Origin: Pseudomonadota bacterium
Lineage (GTDB): Bacteria; Desulfobacterota; QYQD01
Assembly: GCA_011046395.1 (NCBI GenBank)
Contig: DSAQ01000150.1
Span: forward strand, 1 to 62,958
Direction of reading: 5' to 3'
Length of the DNA: 62,958 nucleotides
Below, in pieces: positions 37,622 to 59,417 of this stretch. Every line of letters starts with the position of its first letter. The stretch's first letter is position 1. The notes beneath the pieces were generated by a model. The model searched no databases. It worked only from the letters and a program-made list of their open reading frames with translations, and had not been told where the DNA came from. Made by a program: the position numbers and the translations under genes.

Positions 37622-37633
37622 TCATAGTGCTTC

Positions 37634-38347: not shown

Positions 38348-38350
38348 CGT

Positions 38351-39613: not shown

Positions 39614-39938
39614 GAGATGTCCAACCTCCTTTTTTGACCCAAATTAGACAGAAAATGTCTTTTCCTTATTCATATTATACTAATCTATTCGCTGACTTAC
39701 CCTAAAGTTCCCCCCTTTCTTTTTAGTCTCCTATCTTTAAGATTTTCTGCTCACGCATGGCTACTTGGTGTTTGCTTCAAGACCGCTTCGCATATACTTA
39801 CAAAAAACATGCCTCCAGTAAAAAGGGCTTATTATTAGAAGCAATTAATTTAATATTATCTAATAATATTAAATTCTTATATCTTAAGCATACACAAATA
39901 CATTTTTCCGTTTTTTGTACCTCTTCGGTTTATTTATA

Positions 39939-40021
39939 GTCTAAAATACGACCCTAAGCAGTCAATTATCTGTTAATGACAGATAATATGGGCATAACTT
40001 TATTTGTCTAAGATACGACCC
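39939..40021. promoter_or_regulatory. Direct repeats flanking a palindrome in the activator / permease-operon intergenic region
   Basis: GTCTAAAATACGACCC (39939-39954) and GTCTAAGATACGACCC (40006-40021) flank ATTATCTGT-TAATG-ACAGATAAT (39965-39987). A 12-bp AT palindrome lies at 39847-39875. Confidence 0.4.
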
Positions 40022-40146
40022 GGACGTCTAATATTCGTCCCTTTACAGTGAACTGGATGCTTCCTTTGACTTGGACGAAGTGTTTGTGTGGCTGCTTAAT
40101 CTATAATGGAAGGGGGGGCCACCGATGGTTTGTATAGACTATGACC

Positions 40147-42072
40147 CTATAGGATCATTTCCAATTTATAACGTTTAACCTTGCTATATAGAGTGGAACG
40201 GGTAATGCCTAATCTTCGCGCCGCTTCATGTTTATTCCAGTTGGATTCGTCAAGCACCCGAGCTATGAGTTTTTTTTCATTTTCAGCCAGAGAAGTGGAT
40301 GGATAGATATATGTTTCACGGAGATGGGGAGGCAAGCATTTCTCTTTAATGGTGTTACCTTTAGTAAGGATAACAGCAAGCTCCACTGCATTTTGCAATT
40401 CACGTACGTTACCGGGCCAGTCATGGTCAAGGAATAACTGTATAACCTTAGGATCAAAGTCCTGGATGTCTTTCCCCTCTCTTTCGTTATACTTGGCCAG
40501 GAAATGACTGCAAAGCGGAACAATATCCTCTTTGCGCTGGCGAAGTGGTGGAAGATCAATAGAGATTACATTGAGACGATAAAAAAGGTCTTCTCTAAAG
40601 TTTCCGGCGGCCATTTCTTCTTTGAGGTTCTTGTTGGTAGCAGCTATAATGCGTACATCAGCTATTATGGTTTTTTCTCCACCCACGCGCTCAAAACATT
40701 TATCCTGGAGGACTCTGAGAAGAGAAACCTGGGTCGTCAAAGGTACTTCACCAATCTCATCAAGGAAAATAGTTCCTTCCTGGGCCAGATCAAAACGTCC
40801 CAGTTTACGCTTTATAGCGCCGGTAAAGGCTCCCTTCTCGTGGCCAAAAAGTTCACTTTCAATGAGAGAACTGGGATAAGCTGAACAGTTGGCTATTATA
40901 AAGGGACCATCTCGCCGGGGGCTGAGGGCGTGAATGCTCTGCGCTACCAACTGTTTTCCTGTGCCATTTTCACCGGTAATGAGCACCGTGGCCGTGGTAG
41001 CGGCAATGTCCTGGATTAGGTTGTAAATCTGTTGCATTTCCCGGCTCTGACCAACCAGTGATAAAAACGAAAATCGATTAGGTGCATAGGCCTTCGGGTC
41101 GCTAAGGTGTTCTTCAAAACGAAGGGCATGCCATATCGGGCCGGAAACCAAGTCAAGCAGGTTATAGAAGAATTCTGAATCTACCGAAGAAATCTTTTTG
41201 GATTGGTGAAAAGCAATGACGTAATAGGCAAAGCATTGTTTCTCAAAGAAAAGAGGAAAGGCATGCCACATGTGGTAGATTTTCAAAAGTTCATCAAAGG
41301 GTGTAGATGTACTGCGGTGATCATTACCGCTGTAAACTACAGCGTGGTCCAGGCTTGTCATCCATTGCAGGAAAGAGCCGATGGAACGACGGTTTATCGT
41401 TGGTGGTAGACTGGCTTTGCTTAGAGTAACTAGGTCGGTTGATGTGGAATTTGGGGCGAAAAAGAGCCTTTCAGCACCTAAAAAGATATCCTTAGCTACC
41501 TTATCTATAGAGCGGATAATCTCTTCAGGAGACGACTTAGCCAGGATCTTTTTTTGATAAGTCAACAGTCCAAACAGGCGTCGGAGGTTGTCGCCATATT
41601 CTTTGACCTGTTTTTCCAATCGTCTTTTCCCGGTAATGTCCTTAGCAACGGCAATGATTCCTGCAATATTTCCGTGTACGTCTTTAATAGGAGAAACCGT
41701 TAGTTCGACATGGACTAATTTTCTGCTTTTGGTCAGGCGTACCGTCTCATAACGTTTAACTTCCTTTTTATTTACGATTTTAGCTATAATACTAAGTGTT
41801 TCGCCCTTTACTTCTTCCGGCTCTAATACCTCTGCGGCCAGGCCCAAGACATCTTTTTCCCTATAGCCATACAACTGTTCAGCTCCCTTATTCCATAAGG
41901 TAATGCGCCCCTCCAGGTCTTTGCAAATAATGGCATTATCGGTTAGGTTAATGGCCTCAAAGAGGTATTCGTGCCCGGGAGGTGTACGGTATGATTCTTG
42001 ACCAACGAAATTATTTTTGTGCAGATGTGAAAGGCGGTCGCTTTTACTTGTTGTGATTTGTGATTTGCCCAT
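40147..42072 (-). CDS. Sigma-54-dependent transcriptional activator (PAS - sensory region - AAA+ - Fis HTH)
   Basis: PAS 'ICKDLEGRITLWNKGAEQLYGY', Walker A 'GENGTGKQ', 'GAFTGA', 'FLDEIGE', 'REDLFYRLNV', and C-terminal HTH 'AARRLGITRSTLYSKVKRY'. Confidence 0.85.
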   Translation of the reverse strand: MGKSQITTSKSDRLSHLHKNNFVGQESYRTPPGHEYLFEAINLTDNAIICKDLEGRITLWNKGAEQLYGYREKDVLGLAAEVLEPEEVKGETLSIIAKIVNKKEVKRYETVRLTKSRKLVHVELTVSPIKDVHGNIAGIIAVAKDITGKRRLEKQVKEYGDNLRRLFGLLTYQKKILAKSSPEEIIRSIDKVAKDIFLGAERLFFAPNSTSTDLVTLSKASLPPTINRRSIGSFLQWMTSLDHAVVYSGNDHRSTSTPFDELLKIYHMWHAFPLFFEKQCFAYYVIAFHQSKKISSVDSEFFYNLLDLVSGPIWHALRFEEHLSDPKAYAPNRFSFLSLVGQSREMQQIYNLIQDIAATTATVLITGENGTGKQLVAQSIHALSPRRDGPFIIANCSAYPSSLIESELFGHEKGAFTGAIKRKLGRFDLAQEGTIFLDEIGEVPLTTQVSLLRVLQDKCFERVGGEKTIIADVRIIAATNKNLKEEMAAGNFREDLFYRLNVISIDLPPLRQRKEDIVPLCSHFLAKYNEREGKDIQDFDPKVIQLFLDHDWPGNVRELQNAVELAVILTKGNTIKEKCLPPHLRETYIYPSTSLAENEKKLIARVLDESNWNKHEAARRLGITRSTLYSKVKRYKLEMIL

Positions 42073-42170
42073 TTAGTCGTGTTCTCCAATCCATTCACAA
42101 TTAACATGGATTAGTCTGACAACTTTTAAAAAATCAGGTCCTTTGAGCCTCTTGCAAAAGTCCCAATTCT

Positions 42171-42254
42171 GTCATTCCCGCAGCGATTCTGAGCGGGAAT
42201 CTGGTTCTCGCTGCTTGAAAAACCATATCCCCGATAGAAACATTCGGGGATGAC
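42171..42254. repeat. Nested palindromic intergenic element (copy 2 of 2)
   Basis: GTCATTCCCGC...GCGGGAAT and ATCCCCGA...TCGGGGATGAC. Same outer arms and double-hairpin plan as 11801-11868. It underlies the artefactual ORF 42126..42353. Confidence 0.75.
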
Positions 42255-42340
42255 AAACAGTTTTGCAAGGGCCTTTTTTATATATTTATATTTATTACCC
42301 TGTAAGTCAAGATATTGCAGAGATTTTAGGAACAAATTCA

Positions 42341-42368
42341 TTGACAATGGCATTATCTATTTCATAAT
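42341..42368 (+). promoter_or_regulatory. Putative sigma-70 promoter of the PpsA-like gene
   Basis: TTGACA (42341-42346), 16-nt spacer, CATAAT (42363-42368). It lies about 33 nt upstream of the ATG at 42401. Confidence 0.45.
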
Positions 42369-42400
42369 ATTAGAAAAATCTTAAGGAAATTGATCGATTT

Positions 42401-45010
42401 ATGTTTGGACTCAAAGAGTTTTTTAAGAAGCTGCGAGGGGTTAAGCCTCGGGAGGCCAGAGAAGAAGAGTCTCCTGATGCCGTTCGCCTTGCCTTTACGA
42501 ACCGGTATCTGAATTTTAAAACCCTTTTAAGCACCAATAACAAGGTATTAGAAATCATAACCGACATGGAACAGGCCCTGGTTAGCAGCCACAGTTTCGG
42601 TATGTCGTTTATAAGGGCCAACTGTACTGCCATTTCCGTCAATATGTACAAGATCATACAGACCTTAAACGAAATAACCGTTGGTCGATACCGGGAACTT
42701 TTTGAGGTGTTCGAAGATATCTGGGTAAAAATTGACCAGGAATTAAAAGGCAAAAAAATCCCAGCCAGAGGGGACTTAGTGTTTCCTCTCGAGGCTGTTG
42801 ATAAGGAAATGGCTGATCAGGCTGGAAGTAAGATGGCCAACCTGGGGGAAATCAAAAATCGGATTGGCCTGTCTGTTCCCGAAGGTTTTGTCATTACAGC
42901 CACGGCTTATGATCGGCTCTTAGAGCACAATCGTCTGCAAGATGAGATTAACCGCCGGATTCAATTCCTGGAACCGGAAAATATCGCCCGGCTTTATGAA
43001 ACCAGTGCCGATATCCATAAACTTATCATCAATGCACCCCTTCCCTTAGAACTGGAAGAGGCCATTCGGCAGGCTTATCAGGATGTAATTAAAAAGGTGG
43101 GCCGGGGTGCCAATGTTTCCATGCGCAGCAGTGCCATCGGGGAAGATACAAAAGAGGCCTCTTTTGCCGGACAGTACCGCTCCATACTCAACGTAAGCCC
43201 TGACTATCTAATCCTCTCTTACAAAGAGATACTGGCCAGTAAATATTCCGTCCCGGCCATTGCCTACCGTTTGAACAAGGGATTCCGGGATGAAGACATC
43301 GGTATGTGTGTCGGCTGCATGGCCATGATCGATGCCAAGGCCGGTGGCGTAATGTATTCTACCGATCCCGCCAATATACGCCACGAGTGTATCATGATTA
43401 ATGCAGTCTGGGGGCTGGGTAAATCAGTGGTGGATGGAAGCATAGCCCCGGATCTTTTTGTCCTCTCCAAAGGGGATCCGAAAATTATTCTTAAAAAGGA
43501 GGTTAGTACCAAGGGGCAGAAGTTTGTTTGCCACGCTGAGGAAGGGATATGCCGCATGGAGGTGGTGGAGAAAGAAAAAGATGATCCGGCAATTACCGAC
43601 GAGCAAGCCTCTTTGCTGGCTGAACTGGCCCTCCGCCTGGAAAGATATTTTGGCTGTCCCCAGGATATTGAATGGGCCATTGAACCGGATGGCTCGATCC
43701 GGATATTACAGAGCCGGCCACTGATGGTAATTGGCCAGGATTTGGCCGTACCTGAAGAGATCGCTGAATCAAAAGTTGACCTTCCAGTAATCTTAGCCGG
43801 GGGAGTAACCGCTTGCCCGGGCGTGGCCACCGGCCCCGCCTTCGTAGTGAAGACGACTGTGGATATGTTGCAGTTTCCCCGCGGGGCTGTCCTTGTGGCT
43901 ATGAATCCTTTGCCCCAATGGGCAGCGGTCTTAAATAGTGCGGCCGCTGTCGTCACCGACCGGGGAGGGATCACCGGCCACCTGGCGGCCGTGGCCCGTG
44001 AGTTCAAAGTTCCGGCCCTTTTGGGAACCTCAACTGCCACCCGGGAAATCAAGAGCGGAGACCTCATTACCGTGGATGCCGATGGCGGCAAGGTTTATGC
44101 CGGCCGGGCAGAATCTCTCTTGCAGAAGGCGTCTGAGAGGGTAAGCTTGATGAAGGGGAGTCCTGTTTATGTTACTCTGGAAAAGGTCCTGAAATATATT
44201 GCGCCGCTCAACCTTACGGACCCGGATGCCTCTAATTTTAGGCCTCAAGGGTGCCAGACCATACATGACATTACCCGTTTTGCCCATGAGATGTCCTTAC
44301 GGGAGCTTTTTGCTTACAAGAAGGAGGTTTCTTTCCCGGAACATCTGGCCAAAAGGTTGGTCTTCGATGTCCCCATGCAGTGGTGGGTTATTGATCTGGA
44401 TGGTGGGTTTAGAAAAGAGATTGAAGGAAACACGGTCAGCCTTGAAGACATTACCTCCATTCCCATGTTGGCTTTGTGGAAGGGGATAACGGCCGTGCCC
44501 TGGGAAGGTCCACCACCGGTGAATACGAAGGGATTCCTTTCTATAATATACGAATCAACCATGGATACCAGCCTTGTACCGGGCATAGGTTCACGTTTTG
44601 CCGAACGGAATTACTTCATCATATCCAGAAATTTTTGCCATCTGAGCTCGAGATTTGGCTTCCATTTTTCGACTGTAGAGGCCTTTTTGAGTGACAGTGT
44701 GGCGGAAAATTACATCTGCTTTAATTTTAAGGGCGGCGCGGCCGACCATACGCGCAAAAAGCGAAGGGTCAACCTTATTAAGGCTCTCCTGGAAAAATTT
44801 GATTTTTGGGTACAGGTCAGGGGTGACCTTATTTTCGCCCGGCTGGAACGACAGGAGCAGGATTTCTTAAAACAGAGATTGAAAGTTATCGGTTATCTCA
44901 CTATGCATACCAGGCAGCTGGATATGACCCTGTCCAACAACGGAATGGTAAACTGGTACGTGCAAGAAATGCTAAAACAGATTTCCTCCTTTGCGGCCAT
45001 CCCGCAATAA
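42401..45010 (+). CDS. PEP synthase-like enzyme: N-terminal unknown region + ATP-grasp (PPDK_N) + phosphohistidine swivel domain + non-canonical C-terminal domain
   Basis: 'GSKMANLGEIKNRIGLSVPEGFVITATAY', 'VSMRSSAIGEDTKEASFAGQY' and 'DIEWAIEPDGSIRILQSRP' indicate a PpsA/PPDK nucleotide-binding domain. 'VVTDRGGITGHLAAVAREFKVPALLG' is the mobile His domain. The last ~300 aa lack PEP/pyruvate TIM-barrel motifs. Confidence 0.8.
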   Translation: MFGLKEFFKKLRGVKPREAREEESPDAVRLAFTNRYLNFKTLLSTNNKVLEIITDMEQALVSSHSFGMSFIRANCTAISVNMYKIIQTLNEITVGRYRELFEVFEDIWVKIDQELKGKKIPARGDLVFPLEAVDKEMADQAGSKMANLGEIKNRIGLSVPEGFVITATAYDRLLEHNRLQDEINRRIQFLEPENIARLYETSADIHKLIINAPLPLELEEAIRQAYQDVIKKVGRGANVSMRSSAIGEDTKEASFAGQYRSILNVSPDYLILSYKEILASKYSVPAIAYRLNKGFRDEDIGMCVGCMAMIDAKAGGVMYSTDPANIRHECIMINAVWGLGKSVVDGSIAPDLFVLSKGDPKIILKKEVSTKGQKFVCHAEEGICRMEVVEKEKDDPAITDEQASLLAELALRLERYFGCPQDIEWAIEPDGSIRILQSRPLMVIGQDLAVPEEIAESKVDLPVILAGGVTACPGVATGPAFVVKTTVDMLQFPRGAVLVAMNPLPQWAAVLNSAAAVVTDRGGITGHLAAVAREFKVPALLGTSTATREIKSGDLITVDADGGKVYAGRAESLLQKASERVSLMKGSPVYVTLEKVLKYIAPLNLTDPDASNFRPQGCQTIHDITRFAHEMSLRELFAYKKEVSFPEHLAKRLVFDVPMQWWVIDLDGGFRKEIEGNTVSLEDITSIPMLALWKGITAVPWEGPPPVNTKGFLSIIYESTMDTSLVPGIGSRFAERNYFIISRNFCHLSSRFGFHFSTVEAFLSDSVAENYICFNFKGGAADHTRKKRRVNLIKALLEKFDFWVQVRGDLIFARLERQEQDFLKQRLKVIGYLTMHTRQLDMTLSNNGMVNWYVQEMLKQISSFAAIPQ

Positions 45011-45013
45011 TTC

Positions 45014-45056
45014 TTCACCGCAAAGGGCAGAGTGAGGGCGCTTTCTCTGCGGTGAA
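45014..45056. terminator. Hairpin of the TTCACCRCAGAG repeat family after the PpsA-like gene
   Basis: TTCACCGCAAAG ... CTCTGCGGTGAA (one mismatch) starts 4 nt after the stop codon. There is no strong T-tract. Confidence 0.4.
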
Positions 45057-45064
45057 TTATAAGA

Positions 45065-46759
45065 TTGGATATGGATAGAGAAGAAAATAGATCCAGCTAT
45101 TATAGGACCTTGCGACGCCAGTTCATGGCCATTATTTTGTTTATCGCCTTCGTCCCCCTGGTACTGTTGAGCGGTACTATTTATTATCATTATAGCCGTA
45201 CCGTTAAGGAAAAGATCAGAAACGAATTAAAAAATGTGGCGGAAAACAGAAAAAGTACCATTGATCTCTTCCTGAAAGATCGGGCCATCAACTTGGGTGT
45301 CCTGGCCCATACACACAGTTTTGATTACCTGAGAGACAGGAAAAACCTGGACGTTGTCTTTCAATTATTAAAAAGGGTTGATAGTGCCTTTGTGGACCTG
45401 GGCGTAATCGATGGTAATGGTCTTCAGGTCGCTTATATAGGAGCGTATGCCTTAGAGGGCAAAGATTATAGTTCGGCCGGGTGGTTTCAATCGGTTATGC
45501 GTAATAAAGAGGTTTATATCAGCGACGTCTTTCCTGGTTTTAGAAAAGTCCCCCATTTCGTTATTGCCATCAAGAGAGTAGAGGCGGGGAGGCCGTGGAT
45601 ACTACGGGCCACAATAGATACAGAAACTATAAATCATTTTATGAGTACAGCACTTTTGGGTAAAAGAGGTAATGCTTATATCTTAAATCGGGAAGGTGTC
45701 TATCAGATATGCGGCCGTGACCCTGGCCGGGTCCTGAATAAATCAGATTTCAAGATACCCCCCTTGTTTTCCGGTATAAATGAAGAGGAAAAATATGGTC
45801 CGCAGGGCGAGCCAGCACTTTATGCCATGGCCTGGTTAAAGAACAACGACTGGCTGATGGTAATTGAACAGAACTTAAAAGATGAGTTGGGCCCCATGAT
45901 CCATGTTAAGAACATCGTTCTGGCCATATTTGCAGTCAGTTCTCTGATTATTATTTTTAGTACGGTTCTTATTACCAGGCGGGTAATCGGCCGCCTGGAA
46001 GAAATCGACAGGGAACGATCTAAACTTACCAACCAGCTTGTCCACGCCGATAAACTAGCCTCTATCGGTAGATTGGCGACTGGTATTGCCCATGAGATCA
46101 ATAACCCGCTGGCGGTCATCGCTGAAAAGGCCGGATGGATGGAAGACCTGCTGAGCGAAGGTGATATAAAGAAGGACCCCAATTATAGCGAGTTACTCAA
46201 GGCTACCCAGGACATCAAGAAACACGTTAATCGTGGCAAGAAGGTTACACATCGCCTCCTGGGGTTTGCCCGAAGGATGGAGATGGTGTATGAAGAGATA
46301 GATTTAAACTCCACCCTGGATGAAACGGTTTATTTTCTGGAAAGAGAGGCCAGATTTCGCAATATCGATATAATCAAAGAATACCAGGATTCCCTGCCCA
46401 GGATATTCAGTGATGGCGCACAATTACAACAGGTTTTTCTCAATATGTTTAACAATGCCATAGACGCTATTGAAAAAAATGGTAAGATATTGATCTCGAC
46501 GAAAAGCGTGCACGGGGACATTCAGGTTTCCATCGCCGACACCGGACCGGGTATCCCCGGGGAGAATCTGGAAAGGTTATTCGATCCATTTTATACCACC
46601 AAGCCGGTCAATAAAGGCACTGGCCTGGGACTTTCCATCAGTTATGGTATAATAAAAAATTTAGGCGGCCAGATCAAGGTCGAAAGCGAGGTCGGCAAAG
46701 GGACCACTTTTCATATTATTTTGCCCAAACATTTTCAGCAACCAGCTATCAGCGGCTGA
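45065..46759 (+). CDS. Sensor histidine kinase (TM - Cache/PDC-like periplasmic domain - TM - HisKA - HATPase), paralogue 1
   Basis: Two TMs bracket about 250 aa. H-box '[13 protein letters not shown]', N-box 'FLNMFNNAIDA', G-boxes 'DTGPGIP' and 'GTGLGLSISY'. TTG start at 45065 (ATG at 45071). Confidence 0.85.
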   Translation: MDMDREENRSSYYRTLRRQFMAIILFIAFVPLVLLSGTIYYHYSRTVKEKIRNELKNVAENRKSTIDLFLKDRAINLGVLAHTHSFDYLRDRKNLDVVFQLLKRVDSAFVDLGVIDGNGLQVAYIGAYALEGKDYSSAGWFQSVMRNKEVYISDVFPGFRKVPHFVIAIKRVEAGRPWILRATIDTETINHFMSTALLGKRGNAYILNREGVYQICGRDPGRVLNKSDFKIPPLFSGINEEEKYGPQGEPALYAMAWLKNNDWLMVIEQNLKDELGPMIHVKNIVLAIFAVSSLIIIFSTVLITRRVIGRLEEIDRERSKLTNQLVHADKLASIGRLATGIAHEINNPLAVIAEKAGWMEDLLSEGDIKKDPNYSELLKATQDIKKHVNRGKKVTHRLLGFARRMEMVYEEIDLNSTLDETVYFLEREARFRNIDIIKEYQDSLPRIFSDGAQLQQVFLNMFNNAIDAIEKNGKILISTKSVHGDIQVSIADTGPGIPGENLERLFDPFYTTKPVNKGTGLGLSISYGIIKNLGGQIKVESEVGKGTTFHIILPKHFQQPAISG

Positions 46760-46802
46760 GTGCTGACTGCTGATTGCGGAAAGCTAAATAAGGAGTGAGA
46801 AA

Positions 46803-47222
46803 ATGGAAGATATCCGGTTATTGCTGGTCGATGACGAGGAGGACTTTAGAACTACTCTGGCCAACAGGTTAAAGAAGAGAAAAATCGATGCTACAGGCGC
46901 TGGCAGCGGCAGTGAGGCCATAGAACTGGTCAGACTAAGGTCTTTTGACGTGGCTATAGTTGATGTCAAGATGCCCGGGATAGATGGTATTGAGACATTG
47001 AGGCAGATCAAACAGATCAGCCCTCTCATGGAGGTTATTATGCTTACCGGGCATGCCTCGGTCGAGTCGGGAATAGAGGGGATGAAACTGGGGGCCTACG
47101 ATTACCTGATGAAGCCCTGCGATATCGATGAGCTTCTGCTCAAGGTCGGAGATGCCTACCACCGTAAACTGGTCCAGGAAGAGCGTATTCACCAGGCCGA
47201 ACTGAAACAAGAAGGCCGGTGA
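46803..47222 (+). CDS. Single-domain response regulator (receiver only), paralogue 1
   Basis: 'LLLVDDEEDF', 'DVAIVDVKMPGIDG', 'VIMLTGH', and 'DYLMKP'. 139 aa with no output domain. Confidence 0.9.
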   Translation: MEDIRLLLVDDEEDFRTTLANRLKKRKIDATGAGSGSEAIELVRLRSFDVAIVDVKMPGIDGIETLRQIKQISPLMEVIMLTGHASVESGIEGMKLGAYDYLMKPCDIDELLLKVGDAYHRKLVQEERIHQAELKQEGR

Positions 47223-47294
47223 GACGGCCCGGGAATAAAACATACTTTAGGCACTTTAGTGCACTTTAAATTTTAGGCACTTTCATAATAAATT

Positions 47295-48968
47295 ATGCCC
47301 CAGATCAAGCCAAGCTCTCTTGAATATTACGCGCAGCTTAAACAACACTTTGTAAAGATACTCCTCTCGGCTGCCTTCATACCCCTTATCCTGATCGGCG
47401 GCATACTGTACTATCATTTTAGTGCAACCCTGAAGGAAAATTCCCTGCACTATGTAGAAAATCTAGTCAGGGATCATCAAAATGGGATCGACAGTTTTCT
47501 TATCGAAAGGCTCTCCGATCTGAAAGCCCTGTCCAAAAGCCATACCATAGATTATTTAGTGCAGGGGGATCACCTGTCAGAGGCATTCAACATCCTCCAG
47601 GGAGAATATGGAACTTTCACGGAACTAGGGGTGATCGATGCCGCCGGCAACCATGTGGCTTATGTGGGTCCGTATAAGCTCCTCGGCAGGAATTATAAGG
47701 ATGCTCCCTGGTTCAAAGAGGTGATGGAGCAGGGAGAGTATGTCAGCGATGTTTTTTTAGGATTGAGAAGGGTGCCGCACATTATTATGGCCGTAAAAAG
47801 AGTGGAAAATGGCCGTACCTGGATTCTTCGGACGACGCTGGATATAGCGAAGTTTAGTGATTTGGTGGAAGGTATCCGAATCGGCAAAACCGTAGACGCC
47901 TTTATTGTCAATACGGAGGGTATCCTTCAAACCCGCCCGCGCAGCGGGGGCGATCTTCTAGAAAAGTCTGATTTTTTGCCTGGTAAGTATGCCCAGGGAA
48001 TAAGACTGGAAGAAAAAAAAGACGAACTGGGAACCAGATTCATTTATGCCTACACCTGGCTGCAAAATAGAAACTGGTGCCTGGTGGTTAGACAGGACCT
48101 GCGCGAAGTTTATGCCGCCCTCCGCCATGTTAACTACGTTATCATCCCTATTTTTATCGGGGGCAGCTTTTTTATTGTTTTTGCTGCCATTTTTACGACC
48201 AGACAACTGGCCAGCCGGATCGAGAAGACAGACCGCGAGAAAGACATGTTAAATGAACAGCTTCTTCAATCCGGCAAGCTGGCTGCGATTGGAGAGCTGG
48301 CCGCCGGTATAGCCCATGAGATCAACAACCCCCTGGCCATAATAGGAGAAGAGGCCGGATGGATGAAGGATCTGCTCAAAAAAGAGGCGCTCAAGTGCTC
48401 TCCCAAGGTAACGGAGTTCGAAGACAGCATAAGCCAGATCGAGCTTCAGGCCAGGCGGTGCCGCCAGATAACGCATAACCTCTTGGCCTTTGCCCGCAAG
48501 CTGGAACCGAAAATGGAAAGTGTCAGTCTAAATGATCTGATCGAAGACGTAATCAAGCTGGTAGAACGGGAGGCCAGAGTAAACGATATAATAATGACAC
48601 GTAACTTTTACCATGAGTTACCCACCGTATGGACGGATGCGTCTGAACTGAGGCAGGTCTTCTTAAATCTCATCAACAATGCCATGGATGCCATCGGGCG
48701 AAAGGGTGGGATTACCATCACCACCCGCCTGGGATTGGACTCTGTCTGCGCTGAAGTAGCCGACACCGGACACGGCATTGCCAGAGAAGACTTAGACAAA
48801 ATTTTTCTTCCCTTCTTTACCACCAAAGCACCGGGCAAGGGCACCGGCCTGGGTCTGGCCATCTCCTACAGTGTTATTGAAAAACTGGGCGGGAGAATAA
48901 CGGTAAATAGTGCGGAGGGCAAAGGGACTACCTTTTCCGTATGCCTGCCCCTGGGGAGAAAAGGATAA
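47295..48968 (+). CDS. Sensor histidine kinase, paralogue 2 (same architecture as 45065..46759)
   Basis: '[13 protein letters not shown]', '[11 protein letters not shown]', 'DTGHGIA', and '[10 protein letters not shown]'. The N-terminal and sensor regions align with paralogue 1. Confidence 0.85.
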
Positions 48969-48987
48969 AACAAGGAGAACAGAAAAG

Positions 48988-49389
48988 ATGGAGAGGGCTA
49001 TCAGAGTATTGCTGGTGGATGATGAAGAGCGTTTTACCCGGACACTTTCCAAAAGGCTGACGGAAAGAGGACTGAGAGTGCATACCGCCTCGAGCGGTAT
49101 GAAGGCCCTGAGGCACATGGAAGATAATGTGTTTGATGTAGTGGTTCTGGACGTCAAGATGCCCGGCATGGACGGAGTAGAGACATTGCGGGAGGCAAAG
49201 AAGGTTCAGCCTCTGACCGAAGTAATACTGCTGACCGGACACGCCTCAGTCGATTCGGCTATCGAAGGCATGCGTCTGGGGGCCTTCGAATATTTAATGA
49301 AGCCCTGCGAGATCGAAGAGCTTATGGCCAAGATTGAGGAAGCTTACGCTAAAAGAGTGATGCGGGAAGAGGAAATTAGAGAATCCTAG
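48988..49389 (+). CDS. Single-domain response regulator, paralogue 2
   Basis: 'VLLVDDEERF', 'DVVVLDVKMPGMDG', 'VILLTGH', and 'EYLMKP'. The start is taken at the Met with an AGGAGAA RBS. The track ORF begins at 48910, inside the kinase gene. Confidence 0.9.
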   Translation: MERAIRVLLVDDEERFTRTLSKRLTERGLRVHTASSGMKALRHMEDNVFDVVVLDVKMPGMDGVETLREAKKVQPLTEVILLTGHASVDSAIEGMRLGAFEYLMKPCEIEELMAKIEEAYAKRVMREEEIRES

Positions 49390-51222
49390 GTGGCTATGAA
49401 GCTAAAAGCAACCCTTGCCGCTTTCGGCCTGGCTGCGGTGGTGCTCGGCGTCATCTTTGTGTACAGCTATATGGCCGAGAGACCTACACGGGAAATTTCT
49501 TACGGCGAATTTAAGACGCTCTTGCGGGGGAAAAGGGTAGAACGGGCCGTCCTATTTAAAGATCGTATCACCGGCGAGTTAACGGTCGAGGATGCCGGCT
49601 CCCTGGTCGCGATGAAGGACGCGCAGCTTAGCAAATCACCGGAAAAAGCGCAAAAAGAACGCTTGTTTACTACCAGGCGCGTCGAAGACCCCAGACTGGT
49701 CGACGAACTGGATCGGTTAGGCGTCTCCTATCGCTCCGGTTTCGAGCATACCTGGGTGATGACTCTCATCTCCTGGGTTGCTCCGGCCGGCATCCTGATG
49801 CTGGGCGCGTTCCTCTTTTTCCGGAAAATGGGGTATGGATCCGGAACAAGTCGCCTCTTTGTCGAAAAAAAATCCAACGTTACCTTCCCGGATGTAGCCG
49901 GAGTGGCTGTGGCCGAAGAAGAACTAAGGGAAATCATAGAATTCTTAAGAAATCCATCCCGCTTCCAGAACCTCGGCTGTAAAATTCCGAAGGGTGTCCT
50001 TTTGGTGGGTCCGCCCGGTTCAGGCAAGACCTTGCTGGCCCAGGCCGTGGCCGGAGAGGCTAATGTGCCGTTTTTCAGTATAAGTGGCTCGGCCTTTGTG
50101 GAGATGTTTGCCGGGGTCGGTGCGGCCAGGGTAAGAAACCTCTTTGCCCGGGCAGCCAAGAAGTCTCCCTGCATTATCTTTATTGATGAAATAGACGCTG
50201 TGGGCAAAGCCAGAGAAGGTATCGCTGTTTCCGGAGCGGAAGAGCATGAACAGACCCTGACCCAGTTACTTACCCAAATGGATGGTTTCGATACCAAAAA
50301 GGGGGTCATTATTCTGGCGGCCACCAACCGTCCCGAGATTTTAGACCCGGCCTTGCTCAGACCAGGCCGTTTTGACCGGCACATCGTGGTAGACCGGCCG
50401 GATTTGAAAGGACGGGAACAGATATTTAAAATTCATGCCCGAAATCTAAAATTGGCCAGGGATGTGGACTTCAAAGGCCTGGCCGCCACTACGCCAGGAA
50501 TGGTAGGGGCGGAGATAGCTAATGTTGTCAATGAGGCTGCCCTGCTAGCGGTACGAAGGAATAAGGAGACCGTGCAAATGTCGGACTTTAAAGACGGCAT
50601 TGAGCGCGTGTCTGCCGGACTGGAAAAGACGAATAAGTTAATCAATGCCAGAGAAAAAGAAATCGTAGCCTATCACGAGGCCGGGCATGCCATTGTGTCC
50701 TTATCGCTGCCACAGGCCGATCCGGTCCACAAAATTTCCATTATCCCCAGAGGAATATCTGCCCTGGGATATACCGTCCACCTGCCTACAGAAGACCGCT
50801 ACCTCCTGACCCAGTCAGAGCTATTGGATAAAATAACTGTTTTGCTGGGTGGCCGGGCATCGGAAGAGGTCATTTTTGGAGAGGTTTCCACCGCCTCCCA
50901 GAGTGATCTGGAAGAAGCCACGGAAATCGCAAGAAGTATGGTTCAGACCTATGGGATGAGCGATAAGGTGGGGCCTCTTACCTTTGAGAAAGGACGGCCG
51001 CTTTTTCTAGACACCAAATATAGTCCGCTCAAGGAATATAGTGAACATACAGCCATGCGCATTGACGAAGAGGTTTATAGGATAGTAAACCAAACTTACC
51101 AAACGGCCAAACAAATACTTGCCAGCCGGCGTTTGGATTTGGAAAAAGTGGCCAGGGCCTTAGTGGAAAAAGAAGTAATCGACCGAAATGAACTGGATAG
51201 GATCCTGGTAGAAACGAACTAA
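49390..51222 (+). CDS. Second FtsH-family AAA+ zinc metalloprotease, embedded in the two-component cluster
   Basis: Two TMs, Walker A 'GPPGSGKT', Walker B 'IIFIDEID', pore loop 'EMFAGVG', SRH '[20 protein letters not shown]', and zinc site 'HEAGHAI'. It starts (GTG 49390 or ATG 49396) directly after the receiver stop codon at 49387-49389. Confidence 0.9.
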
Positions 51223-51226
51223 CCGT

Positions 51227-53218
51227 ATGCCGTCCCCAAAACCAAATCTGCCCTTGCCTAATACCTTGAAGACCCTGAATGTAGCCATTGTGGGTGGAGG
51301 GGCACGCTGTAAGGCCCTTCTAGGGCTGGCTCTTGGGAATAAACTAAAGAACTTTCAGATGCATGTGATGGGCGTAGCCGATCCCAACCCGCAAGCCCCT
51401 GGACTGGCCTATGCGCGCCAGCATGGCATCTTTACTACCAGAGACTATCATGATCTTTATAAGCTAAAACCGCTTGACCTGATAATAGAGGTCACCGGCA
51501 AGCGGGCAGTGCGAGATGAGATTGTTTATTCCAAGCCAAAGCATATGCGCATTATGGATCACGCGGCTGCCAACTTGTTATGGGATTTTTTACAACTGGA
51601 AGACGAGCGGACTACTTACGAAAGGGAAACCATAGAAAAGGTCCGGAAAGAGTTTTCGCAGCACGCCCAGGAAATTTCGGTTTTGAACAGTATTATCCAT
51701 GCTGTAAACCGATCATGGGATGTGCCCAGTATGTGTCAAGAAACCCTAAAGAAGAGCAGGCTCTGGGCCGGGGCAGATATGGCCTGGATTCATGTCCGCG
51801 ATCCGGGGAAAGAGGTGTGGGAAACCTTTGAAAATCATGACTCAACCAGCGTGGATCCAAGGTCCTTCTGTAGTGAAATACAGCCTGAAAATTTCCTGCG
51901 AATGTTTAAAGATCAGCGGGAGGCGGTGTTAAACAATGACTCTTCTGCCCTTCCCCAAGCCTTGACTAGGCACGGCATACAGTCTATGGTCAGCCTTCCT
52001 CTATACTCTAGCCACGAACTGGTCGGGATTATGTGCCTGGCCAACCAAATGCCGAGAGAGTTCCTGGAAAGAAAACTTCAGGTCCTGCAGTCTCTCGGAG
52101 AAGAGATTGCCATCGGCATCGCCAAGGCCAGGCTATTTGATACGGTATCTCGCGACAAGAGGCAATGGGAGTCTACTTTTAATGCCATCACCGCACACAT
52201 TTTTATAGTTGATGCGCAATTTTGCATTATCAAGGCTAATGAGGCCTTTCTGAGAGACTATAATGTAGATGATGCCAAACAGCGAAGGTGTTACGAGGTG
52301 GTTCGCCATAGGAAAAAACCCTGCCCTGAATGTGCCCTCCAGGAAGTGTTTCAATCCAAGACAACGGTTTCTTTGCAAAAAGAGCAGCCGGTTTTGGGAG
52401 GTTTTTTTCGATATAATTACTTTCCGGCCTTTACTCCCGAAGGTGAGGTTACTTCAGTAACCATTTATGAAGAAGATATAACCGAGATCAAAAAGGCCGA
52501 AGAGAAAATAATAGATTTTCAGAAGAGGCTCGTTAAATCGGAAAGCATAGCCGCCATGGGTAAACTAGCCGCTTCCATCGCACATGAAATCCGCAACCCA
52601 TTAGGAGCGCTATCCAATTCCATCAGCATACTTCGTAAGAGCCTGAAGCTGGCCGGACCACAGCAGGAACTTATGGAAATCATGTCCGCGGAAGTTGGCA
52701 GGCTGAATAACATTGTGCATGACTTCCTTACCTATACCCGTCCCAAGTCCCTCCAGTATCGTCACATAGACATCAATAAGTTACTATCCGAAATGGTCAC
52801 CTTCTTGAGTAAGGATCAAGCGTTGATGGGCAACTCTCAAATTCAATGTCTTTTTGAAGACATGCCTCCGGTGCAGGTAGATGCCGACCAATTAAAAACG
52901 GCCGTCCAAAACGTACTGATCAATGCCTTGCAGGCCACCAGGGGTAAGGGAGTGATAATCATTACTACGGAGAAGGAGACGTTGGATCATCAGCCCTTTT
53001 TCAAAATCGGCATCCAGGATAATGGAAAAGGAATATCTCCGGACCACATAAAAAAGATTTTTGAGCCCTTCTTTTCTACCAAAACCAAAGGTCTGGGCCT
53101 GGGTTTGGCTATAGCCAGGAGAATCATCGAGGAACATGGGGGAGATATGGAGATTAAGAGTAAAGAAGGAGTAGGCACCTCCATCTTTATGGTGCTGCCT
53201 TTAGAGCGGTTGAATTAA
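51227..53218 (+). CDS. Cytoplasmic sensor histidine kinase (Rossmann-like N-domain - GAF - PAS - HisKA - HATPase)
   Basis: N-terminus 'VAIVGGGARCKALL...VMGVADPN'. GAF-like middle. PAS with 'CYEVVRHRKKPCPEC'. H-box 'SIAHEIRNPL'. 'GLGLGLAIARRIIEEHGG'. No TM segments. Confidence 0.85.
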   Translation: MPSPKPNLPLPNTLKTLNVAIVGGGARCKALLGLALGNKLKNFQMHVMGVADPNPQAPGLAYARQHGIFTTRDYHDLYKLKPLDLIIEVTGKRAVRDEIVYSKPKHMRIMDHAAANLLWDFLQLEDERTTYERETIEKVRKEFSQHAQEISVLNSIIHAVNRSWDVPSMCQETLKKSRLWAGADMAWIHVRDPGKEVWETFENHDSTSVDPRSFCSEIQPENFLRMFKDQREAVLNNDSSALPQALTRHGIQSMVSLPLYSSHELVGIMCLANQMPREFLERKLQVLQSLGEEIAIGIAKARLFDTVSRDKRQWESTFNAITAHIFIVDAQFCIIKANEAFLRDYNVDDAKQRRCYEVVRHRKKPCPECALQEVFQSKTTVSLQKEQPVLGGFFRYNYFPAFTPEGEVTSVTIYEEDITEIKKAEEKIIDFQKRLVKSESIAAMGKLAASIAHEIRNPLGALSNSISILRKSLKLAGPQQELMEIMSAEVGRLNNIVHDFLTYTRPKSLQYRHIDINKLLSEMVTFLSKDQALMGNSQIQCLFEDMPPVQVDADQLKTAVQNVLINALQATRGKGVIIITTEKETLDHQPFFKIGIQDNGKGISPDHIKKIFEPFFSTKTKGLGLGLAIARRIIEEHGGDMEIKSKEGVGTSIFMVLPLERLN

Positions 53219-54612
53219 TGGCCCGCATACTCATTGTGGACGACGAAAAGGGACTGCGTCGCAGCACGGCCATAGCCTTTCAGTTGAGGGGCCACCAAGT
53301 GGAGGAGGCTGGAACTGGAGAGGAGGCCCTGGAGTTTGTCCGGAAAGATATTTTTGACCTCGTCATCACTGACCTGGTTATGGAAGACATGGATGGATTA
53401 GAGTTAATCAAAAAAATCAAGGCATTGTGCCCGATTTCATCCGTCATTATGATGACCGCCTATGGGTCTATTGACAGTGCTATCGCCGCCACCAAATTGG
53501 GAGTCAGCGACTATGTCACCAAGCCCTTTACAGAGGATCAGATCCTTTTAGCCGCAGAGAAGGCCTTCCAACGGCAAAAAATGGAATCGACCATACGGGT
53601 CCTGCAAAGTGTGTTAATCGACAAGTATCAGTTCAAAAACATCATTACGGTAAGCCGCGAACTGAAGGAGATATTACGAAAAATCTGTCTGGTGGCTACT
53701 CAAAATATCACTGTTTTGTTAATGGGAGAAAGTGGAACAGGCAAAGAGCTTATAGCCGCCGCCTTGCATCGCGTGAGCCACCGGAAAGACAGGCCTTTTG
53801 TAGCCTTGAATTGCGGCGCTTTTCCGGAAACCCTACTGGAAAGTGAACTCTTTGGACATACCCGCGGTGCTTTTACCGGGGCAACCAGTCACAAAAAAGG
53901 GCTGGTTGAAGAGGCCGATGGTGGCACCATATTTTTGGATGAAATCGGGGATGCCCCTTTATCCTTCCAGGTAAAAATATTACGTTTTTTGGAAGATGGA
54001 GAATTTAGAAGACTGGGGAAAACCATCACCCGAAAAGCTGACGTAAGAATTATCGCGGCTACACACAAAAATTTAGAACACGAAATTGAGGCCGGGCGCT
54101 TCCGCGACGATCTTTTCTTCCGTTTGAGTGCTTGCCGATTTGACTTGCCGCCCTTACGGGCCCGAAAGGAGGATATACCCTTTCTGGCCCAGCACTTCTT
54201 GAAAACCTATTCATCTGAAATGAATAAACAAGTAGATATGATCCACCCCCGGGTATATAATATCTTTTTAGGGTATTCCTGGCCGGGAAATGTCCGGGAA
54301 TTGGAAAACACCATCCGTTATGCGCTAGCTATTACCCCCAAGAATTGTATCGACATCGAAGACCTGCCGGGCAGTCTTCAGAAGCTGGTCCGAGAAAAGA
54401 TACTGCCGGTCTACTCATCAGATCAGCCTGCCAGCCTGAGTGACCTCGAAAAAGGCTATATCCTCTCGGTTCTGGAAAAAACCGGATGGAACAAGAAAAA
54501 GGCCTGTGAAATTCTGCAAATATCCAAGGCCACGCTGCACCGCCGATTGAAAGAATATAAGCAACTATTCACCGCAGAGACCACAGAGGCCGCAGAGATA
54601 AAAAAAGATTAA
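53218..54612 (+). CDS. NtrC-family sigma-54-dependent response regulator (REC - AAA+ - Fis HTH)
   Basis: 'ILIVDDEKG', 'DLVITDLVMEDMDG', 'GESGTGKE', 'GAFTGA', and 'ILQISKATLHRRLKEY'. The ATG overlaps the kinase stop (TAATG). The last ~15 codons lie in a CACAGAG-type repeat. Confidence 0.9.
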   Translation: MARILIVDDEKGLRRSTAIAFQLRGHQVEEAGTGEEALEFVRKDIFDLVITDLVMEDMDGLELIKKIKALCPISSVIMMTAYGSIDSAIAATKLGVSDYVTKPFTEDQILLAAEKAFQRQKMESTIRVLQSVLIDKYQFKNIITVSRELKEILRKICLVATQNITVLLMGESGTGKELIAAALHRVSHRKDRPFVALNCGAFPETLLESELFGHTRGAFTGATSHKKGLVEEADGGTIFLDEIGDAPLSFQVKILRFLEDGEFRRLGKTITRKADVRIIAATHKNLEHEIEAGRFRDDLFFRLSACRFDLPPLRARKEDIPFLAQHFLKTYSSEMNKQVDMIHPRVYNIFLGYSWPGNVRELENTIRYALAITPKNCIDIEDLPGSLQKLVREKILPVYSSDQPASLSDLEKGYILSVLEKTGWNKKKACEILQISKATLHRRLKEYKQLFTAETTEAAEIKKD

Positions 54613-54654
54613 AATTGATACCCTCCTTTGTGCCTTAGTGGCTTTGTGGCTGAG
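54568..54654. repeat. CACAGAG/CACAAAG-type inverted-repeat element overlapping the regulator 3' end
   Basis: TTCACCGCAGAGACCACAGAGGCCGCAGAG ... CCTTTGTGCCTTAGTGGCTTTGTGGCTGAG. It underlies the artefactual ORF 54565..54747 ('CGLCGLCGE'). Confidence 0.65.
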
Positions 54655-54782
54655 CTTTAGTCTCAAAATGATCCTTCCACTTACCCGTAATAGTATCAAC
54701 TTGATGCCAAGATAAACAAATACTCTAGCCCCCATATAACAATACATCGTAATATCAGTATCTTAAGTTTATAGGCCTATTG

Positions 54783-54798
54783 TGGCACAAGTTTTGAA
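54783..54798 (+). promoter_or_regulatory. Possible sigma-54 promoter upstream of the lone receiver gene
   Basis: TGGCAC-AAGTT-TTGAA. The spacing matches TGGCAC-N5-TTGCW, but the -12 GC dinucleotide is GA. Confidence 0.35.
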
Positions 54799-54831
54799 TA
54801 TGTCTCTTATAAAGGCGGTGGCTAAAGGAGC

Positions 54832-55197
54832 ATGAAAATACTGGTTGTGGATGATGATACTAATTTTCGACACACCTTGGTCTTGTATCTCAATTCGAAT
54901 GGTTGGGAGGTAGATGAGGCCGCTGATGGGCTCGAGGGATGGTCAAAATTAAAAGAGAGTCCCTATGATGTGGTCATTACAGACATTGAAATGCCGGGGA
55001 TGGATGGATTCACTTTGAGGAAGAAGGCTAAGGTGAAAAAAATGAAAATAAAATTTATCTATATGTCTGCCTATCCTCCCGCGGTGGAGAAATCGCGGCA
55101 GGATACTGCATGGTTAACTAAACCTTTTATGCTGGAGAAGTTGCACAGGCTTTTGCAAAGTGTTGTTCCTAAGCCGGCAAGTCCGGGGATTGCATAA
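54832..55197 (+). CDS. Single-domain response regulator
   Basis: 'ILVVDDDTNF', 'DVVITDIEMPGMDG', and 'LTKPF'. 121 aa. Confidence 0.85.
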   Translation: MKILVVDDDTNFRHTLVLYLNSNGWEVDEAADGLEGWSKLKESPYDVVITDIEMPGMDGFTLRKKAKVKKMKIKFIYMSAYPPAVEKSRQDTAWLTKPFMLEKLHRLLQSVVPKPASPGIA

Positions 55198-55229: not shown

Positions 55230-55319
55230 ATGTCAAACGACGTTCTTATTTTGATCGCGGCCGCAGTAGTAGTTTTCTGCGGTATCGGCGGCTATCTGTT
55301 AAAACTGAGGAAAAAATAA
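55230..55319 (+). CDS. Candidate 29-aa membrane peptide (below the track cut-off)
   Basis: My manual translation gives MSNDVLILIAAAVVVFCGIGGYLLKLRKK*. A GAGGGGAGG RBS lies 7-8 nt upstream. It has a single hydrophobic helix with a basic tail. Confidence 0.3.
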   Translation: MSNDVLILIAAAVVVFCGIGGYLLKLRKK

Positions 55320-58800: not shown

Positions 58801-58839
58801 GTATGTCCCTCAAACCGAAAAGTCTAGGTTTTGTAATTT

Positions 58840-58868
58840 CTTATAGCAACTTTGTCTTTTCCTGTCAA
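58840..58868 (-). promoter_or_regulatory. Putative sigma-70 promoter of the membrane-anchored activator gene
   Basis: On the minus strand: TTGACA (58868-58863), 17-nt spacer, TATAAG (58845-58840). It lies about 40 nt upstream of the ATG at 58800. Confidence 0.5.
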
Positions 58869-58881
58869 AAACTTTGTTAGT

Positions 58882-58897
58882 TGGCACGTAATTTGCT
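58882..58897 (+). promoter_or_regulatory. Sigma-54 (-24/-12) promoter of the USP-TSUP-porin operon
   Basis: TGGCACG-TAAT-TTGCT, an exact match to the TGGCACG-N4-TTGCW consensus. It lies 69 nt upstream of the ATG at 58966 and is divergent from a sigma-54 activator gene. Confidence 0.75.
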
Positions 58898-58901
58898 GTT
58901 T

Positions 58902-58932
58902 ATGAATGGCGATTCAAAATCGCGCCATTCAT
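58902..58932. promoter_or_regulatory. 10-bp perfect palindrome at the predicted sigma-54 transcription start
   Basis: ATGAATGGCG - 11 nt - CGCCATTCAT begins 5 nt after the -12 element. Confidence 0.45.
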
Positions 58933-58965
58933 GCGCAAACTAAGGAAAGGAGGTGATCAAACAAT

Positions 58966-59376
58966 ATGAAGATACTGATTCCGGTAGACGGTTCGGCGTT
59001 TGCGTTAAAGGCACTGGAAAAGGCCATAGATATGGCCAAGAAGGAGGGAGCGGAGATAACCGTGATGTCCGTGGCCCTGGAGTTCCAGGACGTGGAGGAG
59101 ATTCCCATCAGCTATCTCGACAAGTTTAAAGACAAGGCTATTCGGGCCGTGGATCAGGCCAAGGAAATCGTAGAAAAGGCCGGTCTCAAGGCCAAGACCA
59201 GGGTAGAACAAGGCGCCTCTCCGGCGGATAACATTGTTACCTTTGCCGCCGAAGAAAAGTTTGATTTGATCGTTATGGGACACCGGGGGCTGACCGGCCT
59301 GGATAAGTTCCTGGTAGGCAGCGTGGCCGGGAGGGTGGTTGCTCATGCCCCCTGCTCGGTTCTGGTAGTCCGTTAA
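58966..59376 (+). CDS. Universal stress protein (UspA family)
   Basis: 136 aa. 'KILIPVDGS', 'DLIVMGHRGLTG', and 'GSVAGRVVAHAPCSVLVV'. Confidence 0.85.
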   Translation: MKILIPVDGSAFALKALEKAIDMAKKEGAEITVMSVALEFQDVEEIPISYLDKFKDKAIRAVDQAKEIVEKAGLKAKTRVEQGASPADNIVTFAAEEKFDLIVMGHRGLTGLDKFLVGSVAGRVVAHAPCSVLVVR

Positions 59377-59417
59377 ACGAAGGAGGGTTAATTGCTTTTT
59401 AAGGAGGGATACTATTT

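Follow-up and report, generated by a model that had tools for sequence, protein, structure and literature searches.

A dikinase-type enzyme family lacking the PEP-binding barrel is encoded beside receivers, sensor kinases and anion permeases and, in one clade, next to an FtsH–sigma-54 unit

Do a phosphohistidine enzyme, three sensor kinases, four receivers and a membrane protease that are encoded in one run of genes form a single signalling system? We addressed this question for positions 42401-55197, plus strand, of contig DSAQ01000150.1 from a metagenome-assembled genome; the complete contig of 62,958 nt was analysed and is called the window here. The block holds nine co-directional plus-strand genes, the first of which encodes an enzyme resembling the phosphoenolpyruvate (PEP) synthase PpsA. 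An initial annotation had read the block as one integrated phosphorelay. Our analysis points, with somewhat more confidence than doubt, to two signalling modules lying end to end rather than to one phosphorelay: an enzyme-centred module A and a protease-containing module B. All nine genes were recovered where they had been placed, with the domains assigned to them (open reading frame list, Pfam and NCBIfam):

42401-45010, plus strand: PpsA-like dikinase-type enzyme, 869 aa (Pfam PPDK_N and PEP-utilizers mobile domain)
45065-46759, plus strand: HK1, histidine kinase with two transmembrane (TM) segments, periplasmic dCache-HisKA-HATPase (Pfam, TM scan)
46803-47222, plus strand: RR1, stand-alone receiver (REC), D-D-D-T-K residues intact (Pfam REC, alignment)
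47295-48968, plus strand: HK2, dCache-HisKA-HATPase, architecture as HK1 (Pfam)
48988-49389, plus strand: RR2, stand-alone receiver (Pfam REC, alignment)
49396-51222, plus strand: FtsH2, complete membrane AAA+ zinc protease (TIGR01241, 730 bits against a cut-off of 600)
51227-53218, plus strand: HK3, cytoplasmic GAF-PAS-HisKA-HATPase (Pfam)
53218-54612, plus strand: NtrC-type regulator, REC-sigma-54 AAA+-HTH_8, its start overlapping the HK3 stop by 1 nt (Pfam, NCBIfam)
54832-55197, plus strand: RR3, stand-alone receiver, D-D-D-S-K, no adjacent kinase (Pfam, alignment)

Gaps of 0-73 nt had been reported, and the measured values of 54-60, 43, 72, 19, 6, 4 and -1 nt bear this out except for one long gap of 219 nt. 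The repeats described in two gaps proved to be short, low-scoring tandem repeats only, and the 219-nt gap holds a candidate sigma-54-type promoter and no repeat element. Three of the four receivers (RR1, RR2 and RR3) stand alone without an output domain, as had been stated. Every catalytic motif is intact, including the H-boxes of the three kinases, the D-D-D-T/S-K residues of the four receivers, GAFTGA in the activator, Walker A/B, the second region of homology and HEAGH in FtsH2, and the swivel His527 of the PpsA-like enzyme. The first 36 kb of the window contain no histidine kinase, receiver or sigma-54 activator, and the last 26 kb contain sixteen signalling or related genes; because of this uneven spread, and because the arrangement recurs in other genomes, the clustering is not due to chance. 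An identical locus is present on two metagenome contigs.

We began with the enzyme. Its product comprises a conserved N-region (residues 1-125), an ATP-grasp domain (140-448; PF01326, PPDK_N, E 2.8e-94), a swivel domain (492-563; PF00391) whose GGITGH motif (GGxTxH) carries a His527 that is invariant in 14 homologues, and a C-domain (~584-869). An ATP-grasp domain followed by a swivel phosphohistidine domain, with the His in GGxTxH, is also the plan of PEP synthase and pyruvate phosphate dikinase. NCBI and JGI accordingly name the protein a pyruvate, water dikinase (PEP synthase), which would assign it to gluconeogenesis, and its best NCBIfam matches are indeed PEP synthase models. However, those matches cover residues 125-589 and fall below their equivalog cut-offs (NF005057, 383.5 against 598; TIGR01418, 373.7 against 739.75), and the enzyme lies under every NCBIfam cut-off. 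PEP synthases, rifampicin phosphotransferases and dikinases in the PDB align to residues 120-610 only, and the PEP-utilizers_C domain, or PEP-pyruvate TIM barrel (PF02896), gave no Pfam match in residues 584-869 even at E <= 1. Because the PEP/pyruvate barrel is missing, the first gene is almost certainly not a PEP synthase and the 'pyruvate, water dikinase' label on the family is almost certainly wrong; a gluconeogenic role as annotated is, in our judgement, highly improbable. The name 'PpsA-like', which we keep for convenience, overstates the likeness, since another C-terminal domain stands where the PEP/pyruvate-binding domain would be.

The regions that flank the dikinase core, the N-terminal 125 and the C-terminal 286 residues, are strongly conserved, and numerous Cys, His, Arg and Asp in them are invariant. 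Modelled with AlphaFold2, the C-domain (pLDDT 80, pTM 0.77) shows a mixed beta-sheet with helices and, like the predicted secondary structure, is not a beta/alpha barrel. Foldseek comparison of this model with the PDB returned no match at E < 0.001, with listed TM-scores of at most 0.46, and a C-domain profile run against PDB sequences gave chance-level MntR matches only. The same profile matched 1449 clusters (50% identity) among 1.84 billion representatives; the listed matches are mostly the C-terminal part of 840-900 aa proteins, and three of the four ~400-430 aa matches that were scanned come from split genes and comprise the half with the swivel His and the C-domain. The N and C regions also occur by themselves. 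In one homologous locus (L028; L numbers denote loci from other genomes) a protein of ~398 aa without ATP-grasp or His lies at 6162-7355 on the minus strand, after genes for a TauE permease and a two-TM protein that we call DUF237. In another (L064, 6120-7265, minus strand), a stand-alone N+C protein of the ~380-400 aa class adjoins TauE, DUF237 and Usp genes on the opposite strand. Because such stand-alone proteins exist, the sequences suggest that the dikinase core was inserted into a self-standing N+C module. The simplest reading of the family is a dikinase-type enzyme with a new substrate domain.

Rifampicin phosphotransferase (RPH), phenylphosphate synthase and PigC/RedH likewise join ATP-grasp and swivel-His chemistry to a family-specific substrate domain, and phenylphosphate synthase has a split two-gene form. 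The substrate domain of the window enzyme is nonetheless unrelated to theirs by sequence, its His domain is central whereas that of RPH is C-terminal, and its scores remain well below the RPH model (NF041857, 243 against 999) and the RPH, PigC and RedH models together (218-243 against cut-offs of 999-1350). From PEP synthase it differs in its 125-aa N-extension, in a 286-aa C-domain without sequence or fold match, and in having no barrel.

We next asked which genes accompany the enzyme elsewhere. A genome scan with the enzyme alignment, using one genome per species, yielded >590 matches, of which the best 80 loci were kept; their domains were mapped by phmmer with the window proteins as queries, and counts were taken within the flanks. 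The loci come mostly from Thermodesulfobacteriota, with some from Nitrospirota, Acidobacteriota and other phyla, and they contain the following:

Stand-alone receiver: 79% of the 80 loci
Histidine kinase: 71%
TauE/TSUP permease: 66%, or 81% of the loci with full flanks
DUF237 (two-TM, no family): 44%, always directly after TauE
dCache kinase: 41%
Sigma-54 activator: 40%
Usp: 21%
FtsH: 0%

The proposed link between the PpsA-like enzyme and two-component proteins is thus real and widely conserved, with a receiver or a kinase in most loci. Because this link and the FtsH2-HK3-activator unit described below are both conserved, the associations extend beyond this genome, and the lack of conservation that the initial annotation had named as its refutation is not what we see. 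Its nine-gene order, however, is not a unit, and it is the modules that recur elsewhere. A common order is HK, REC-sigma54, dCache-HK, one or more RECs, TauE, DUF237, PpsA-like, REC (for example in L011, L017, L022-L025, L031, L032, L040 and L076). Receiver genes lie within 500 nt of a PpsA-like gene in 47 of 137 cases, with a second peak at 2-3 kb that reflects the order REC, TauE, DUF237, enzyme, and all five catalytic residues are present in 33 of the 37 receivers next to the enzyme. The enzyme gene is often duplicated, with 2-3 copies per locus (L011, L024, L042, L046, L054 and L083/L084), and at these loci DASS (Na-sulfate symporter family) and CBS proteins accompany or replace TauE.

The commonest partners of the enzyme, the TauE permease and the 237-aa membrane protein, fall outside 42401-55197. 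In the window they belong to a set of minus-strand genes that had been overlooked:

36562-36945, minus strand: receiver-like protein, 127 aa, degenerate (Pfam REC, alignments)
37017-37451, minus strand: Usp (Pfam Usp; weak NCBIfam UspF-like match)
37634-38347, minus strand: DUF237, 237 aa, N- and C-terminal TM segments, no Pfam or NCBIfam family
38351-39613, minus strand: TauE/SafE (TSUP) anion permease, 420 aa, ~7 TM (PF01925, TM scan)
40147-42072, minus strand: PAS sigma-54 activator, 641 aa, GAFTGA, HTH_8, no receiver (Pfam, motif)

In L085, whose enzyme is 82% identical, genes for the PAS activator, TauE, DUF237, Usp, REC, the enzyme and a dCache-HK all run in one direction: the orthologue of the PAS activator lies upstream of TauE, in the same direction as the PpsA-like gene, and that of the degenerate receiver lies directly upstream of the PpsA-like gene. 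Because these genes are co-directional with the enzyme, the left arm of the window, 36562-42072, is an arm of the same cassette in inverted orientation. Nested inverted repeats of REP/MITE-like appearance (42146-42274, no strand assigned), between the PAS activator and the PpsA-like gene, sit exactly at the inversion junction relative to L085. Module A, comprising 42401-49389 together with 36562-42072, is by its gene content the window's copy of a widespread, uncharacterised cassette.

The kinases and regulators of the block look like ordinary cognate pairs: HK1-RR1, HK2-RR2 and HK3-NtrC each combine an H-box and an HATPase_c domain with an intact adjacent receiver. With 43% identity between the kinases HK1 and HK2 and 55% between their receivers RR1 and RR2, the two pairs are an old tandem duplication. 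HK1 probably starts at the ATG at 45071; gene callers chose 45125.

This pairing bears on the single integrated phosphorelay first proposed, in which the enzyme's phosphohistidine, charged from ATP or PEP, would feed the receivers, the stand-alone receivers would act as sinks, and sigma-54 transcription and FtsH2 would be the read-outs. Such a relay would account for receivers sitting right beside the enzyme far more often than elsewhere and being phosphorylatable by sequence in most cases, for the invariance of the swivel His, and for the spacing of RR2, FtsH2, HK3 and NtrC at 6, 4 and -1 nt. There is also a precedent for phosphate transfer to a protein, in that the swivel-His domain of the phosphotransferase system (PTS) Enzyme I phosphorylates HPr, and Enzyme I and EI-Ntr (PtsP) resemble the window enzyme in placing such a domain in a signalling setting. 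Yet the likeness is narrow: Enzyme I has a PEP-binding barrel, is charged by PEP and has no ATP-grasp domain, the window enzyme has an ATP-grasp domain and no such barrel, Enzyme I matches are weak and confined to the swivel domain, and the locus contains no HPr-like gene. A donor role for PEP is unlikely, because the domain that would bind it is absent from the enzyme. A multi-step phosphorelay requires an Hpt domain or a hybrid kinase. Neither Pfam nor NCBIfam detected an Hpt domain or a kinase-fused receiver (hybrid kinase) in the three kinases or among the open reading frames scanned at 36-61 kb, and three of the four receivers (RR1, RR2 and that of NtrC) each have their own adjacent kinase, leaving RR3 as the sole orphan. 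The C-domain, rich in invariant polar residues, fits a small-substrate site better than a surface for docking, and the ~398-aa N+C protein beside TauE-DUF237 exists without ATP-grasp or His. Finally, FtsH2 is missing from 80 of 80 enzyme-family genome loci, and the NtrC regulator is not orthologous to the cassette regulators. A single relay, which would have to rest on a non-canonical step from the enzyme's His to a receiver, is, on this evidence, quite unlikely.

In the two-module reading, we infer the phosphotransfer partners and the enzyme substrate of module A as follows. The periplasmic dCache kinases HK1 and HK2 would sense external ligands and phosphorylate RR1 and RR2. Lacking an output domain, RR1 and RR2 would work through a bound partner, for which the dikinase-type enzyme is the best candidate: no two genes of the cassette are linked more tightly than those of receiver and enzyme. 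With ATP the enzyme would charge its His527 and hand the phosphate on to a substrate held by the C-domain, probably a small anion tied to the permease and not pyruvate.

The same neighbours allow the enzyme to be purely metabolic, phosphorylating a compound imported by TauE or DASS, with the two-component genes regulating transcription and FtsH2 an unrelated housekeeping protease. The enzyme gene follows those for TauE and DUF237 in many loci and those for DASS and CBS proteins in others, the related ATP-grasp and swivel-His enzymes rifampicin phosphotransferase and phenylphosphate synthase phosphorylate small molecules, the family has split two-gene forms as phenylphosphate synthase does, and the downstream neighbour in the window is another sigma-54-controlled TauE module. 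The genes with the tightest link to the enzyme are those of stand-alone receivers, however, and these cannot by themselves regulate transcription. Nor does FtsH2 behave as an unrelated gene: in the diverged loci L089 and L090 it still precedes HK3-NtrC, at a distance of 4 nt or with an overlap, whereas the next-closest FtsH paralogue examined (58% identical, L092) lies in an unrelated context. We therefore consider a purely metabolic enzyme somewhat unlikely.

Turning to the right half of the block, we found two further elements of module B:

54783-54797, plus strand: candidate sigma-54-type promoter TGGCAC-N5-TTGA upstream of RR3, in the 219-nt gap
55230-55319, plus strand: 29-aa single-TM peptide MSNDVLILIAAAVVVFCGIGGYLLKLRKK, with a GGAGG ribosome-binding site, directly after RR3

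The peptide gene, too, had been missed; orthologous small open reading frames follow RR3 in L087, L088 and L090, and the peptide has a sub-threshold CcmD-family match (20.8 bits, cut-off 24). Upstream of RR3 in the window, L087, L088 and L090, both TGGCAC and TTGA are invariant, while the flanks diverge with indels and one of the aligned regions carries a ~190-nt insertion. The window as a whole shows no excess of sigma-54-type promoter matches.

FtsH2 has the features of a true FtsH, with TM segments at ~11-29 and ~126-144, an AAA domain with Walker A/B and the second region of homology, and an M41 HEAGH site, and it is 46% identical to the housekeeping FtsH1 (33039-34850, minus strand), which lies in a tilS / ftsH / pterin-binding (folP-like) arrangement. 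Five or six FtsH2 contexts were covered. Orthologues of FtsH2, at 75-100% identity, are a discrete group, set apart from the next relatives at <= 61%. FtsH2, a GAF-PAS HK and a REC-sigma54 regulator occur together in L087/L088, L089 and L090, which are all the contexts with downstream sequence; HK3 orthologues 71-74% identical follow FtsH2 in L087-L090, and RR3 orthologues 67-70% identical follow in L087, L088 and L090. Relations to the enzyme vary. L089 repeats HK1, RR1, HK2, RR2, FtsH2, HK3 and NtrC at 72-85% protein identity, with PpsA-like genes that are 40% paralogues; L091 ends just past FtsH2, where dCache-HK, REC and enzyme genes adjoin; and in L087 and L088 the unit begins with FtsH2. 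The 450 nt before FtsH2 in these two contain tandem ~21-nt repeats, GCATGGCAATGGCGGGCAGGT (L087, 9780-9850; L088, 5640-5690).

Two other placements of these genes were considered and set aside. FtsH as a general cassette member was ruled out by the 80 enzyme loci, and FtsH is also missing from a locus with a 70%-identical PpsA-like protein. HK3/NtrC as the cassette's own pair was rejected as well, NtrC being 38-43% identical to cassette regulators and equally so to the unrelated L092 regulator. Because the FtsH2/HK3/NtrC contexts are conserved and NtrC is no closer to the cassette regulators, FtsH2, HK3 and NtrC form a separate, clade-specific module, in that clade always beside the enzyme cassette and joined to it in varying ways.

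In module B, HK3 would phosphorylate the NtrC-type activator, which would switch on RR3 and the 29-aa peptide from the candidate sigma-54 promoter. FtsH2 would be produced along with HK3 and the activator and would have a membrane component as its target for degradation; RR3, the peptide or both may modulate the protease. Stand-alone receivers such as CpdR and RssB gate ClpXP, and small membrane peptides, for example MgtR and SpoVM, affect FtsH. RR3 has CpdR as its best NCBIfam match, but at 66.8 against a cut-off of 180 this is no better than generic receiver similarity. One can go further and regard the PpsA-like family as a new class of signalling enzyme that pairs its N+C module with receivers to control the TSUP transporter, an ATP-driven phosphohistidine protein that would give the receivers phosphate or be switched by them, with a clade-recruited FtsH gated by RR3, as a CpdR-like adaptor, and by the 29-aa peptide. 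We hold this extended version to be unlikely; if true, the gated FtsH would be a two-component-controlled membrane protease.

HK3 and the NtrC-type regulator resemble NtrB/NtrC systems such as AtoS/AtoC and ZraS/ZraR in joining a kinase to a REC-AAA+(GAFTGA)-HTH_8 protein near a candidate sigma-54-type promoter. The regulator has the NtrC-family features (PF00072; PF00158, E 1.3e-67; PF02954; GAFTGA at residue 217), and because every score of the system falls under the NCBIfam equivalog cut-offs, no named orthologue can be assigned. An AAA+ protease is likewise genetically tied to a kinase and a sigma-54 regulator in Desulfovibrio vulgaris Hildenborough DVU3303-3305, which encodes a kinase, a receiver-Lon protease and a sigma-54 regulator (PMC3333781); unlike that receiver-fused Lon domain, the window protease is a separate, complete membrane FtsH. 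FtsH2 of Pseudomonas aeruginosa clone C is, as in the window, a second complete FtsH beside the housekeeping copy, with a narrower substrate range (PMC10850787), but it lies on a horizontally acquired stress island and not in a two-component operon.

Several observations weigh against the two-module reading. The 80 loci, chosen as the best enzyme matches, do not form a random sample, and adjacency is the sole basis for naming a partner of the stand-alone receivers; no receiver-enzyme fusion was found in the long homologues P0089, P0251, P0314, P0316 and P0342. The receiver-like protein at 36562-36945 keeps the phospho-acceptor Asp and is missing the acidic pair, the Thr/Ser and the Lys; because the enzyme-adjacent receiver of the window's own lineage, seen in L085, is degenerate, the receiver-enzyme link may work differently in that lineage. 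The candidate RR3 promoter has GA at -12 where the canonical element has GC (TGGCAC-N5-TTGC), and a candidate promoter of the permease operon (below) is weak, with three mismatches and a weak -12 element. Finally, the FtsH2 clade is narrow, with 75-80% nucleotide identity across the block, and L087 and L088, ~96% identical, count as one lineage. The constant adjacency of FtsH2 and module A could be inherited synteny and not selection.

Each component of the two modules is of a known kind. In the literature we found no description of the enzyme family with receivers and TSUP permeases and none of an FtsH within a sigma-54 two-component operon. The main value of the locus lies in the misannotated enzyme family and in the signalling and transport proteins that are its conserved partners: the family shares one substrate domain, is consistently encoded beside receivers, sensor kinases and TSUP/DASS anion permeases, and is carried by sulfate reducers and related anaerobes, among others. 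Module A occurs in cultured strains too: Desulfacinum infernum DSM 9756 (L014), Desulfobaculum sp. SPO524 (L040) and Nitratidesulfovibrio sp. HK-II (L030). TSUP and DASS transporters of sulfate reducers are uncharacterised and are the least understood candidate sulfur-anion transporters (PMC5840216), and a dedicated set of sensory and enzymatic partners offers a way to learn their cargo and the regulation of its uptake. Membrane proteolysis under signal control has a compact candidate in the FtsH2-kinase-activator unit together with the receiver and peptide presumably driven by sigma-54.

Further elements surround the module A genes. Of all sigma-70-type matches in the region, the best is found 30 nt before the PpsA-like gene, and upstream of the TauE operon are a candidate promoter and a repeat:

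42341-42370, plus strand: TTGACA-16-CATAAT / TTGACA-18-TAATAT, sigma-70-type, consensus match only
39800-39814, minus strand: candidate sigma-54 promoter of the permease operon, AGGCAT-N5-TTGT, in a block kept in L085
39939-40041, minus strand: 16-nt repeat GGGTCGTATNTTAGAC, three copies, kept in L085

The GGGTCGTATNTTAGAC motif occurs nowhere else in the window, and its copies are probably candidate activator binding sites. Directly after the PpsA-like stop and before HK1 (45011-45064), a 9-bp stem, TTCACCGCA...TGCGGTGAA, encloses a 24-nt loop and could be an attenuator or processing site; Rfam listed no RNA family at 36-63 kb.

A possible kinship of TauE/DUF237 with 'membrane protein plus hypothetical' operons of D. 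vulgaris was also pursued. There, DVU0946/DVU0539 control DVU0943-0946 and DVU2133-2132 (PMC3333781, PMC4641369). The DVU0946/DVU0539 site, TGCAAA-N6-TTTGCA, had no intergenic match with <=3 mismatches in the window and none with <=2 in L030; this search gave nothing usable, and the equation of TauE/DUF237 with DVU0943/0944 or DVU2133/2132 was left as an unconfirmed lead. Only a second sigma-54 transport module downstream, at 56311-60813, could be tied to a D. vulgaris family, via a DVU0150-family protein. Its activator (829 aa, membrane-anchored, two TM, weak Cache/HAMP signals, GAFTEA, no HTH_8) is divergent from a perfect TGGCACGTAATTTGC promoter (58882-58896), which is followed by Usp, the DVU0150-family protein (126 bits against a cut-off of 70) and a 342-aa TauE permease. 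The module resembles the D. vulgaris regulon in which DVU0151 controls DVU0150-0146 (PMC3333781, PMC4641369).

Elsewhere in the window, a high-GC stretch on the minus strand (15341-25646; 0.58-0.63 against ~0.47-0.55 elsewhere) encodes a restriction-modification/defence island with a ResIII helicase, an N6/N4 methylase, RhuM, HsdM and a DUF4062 + HATPase_c_4 protein.

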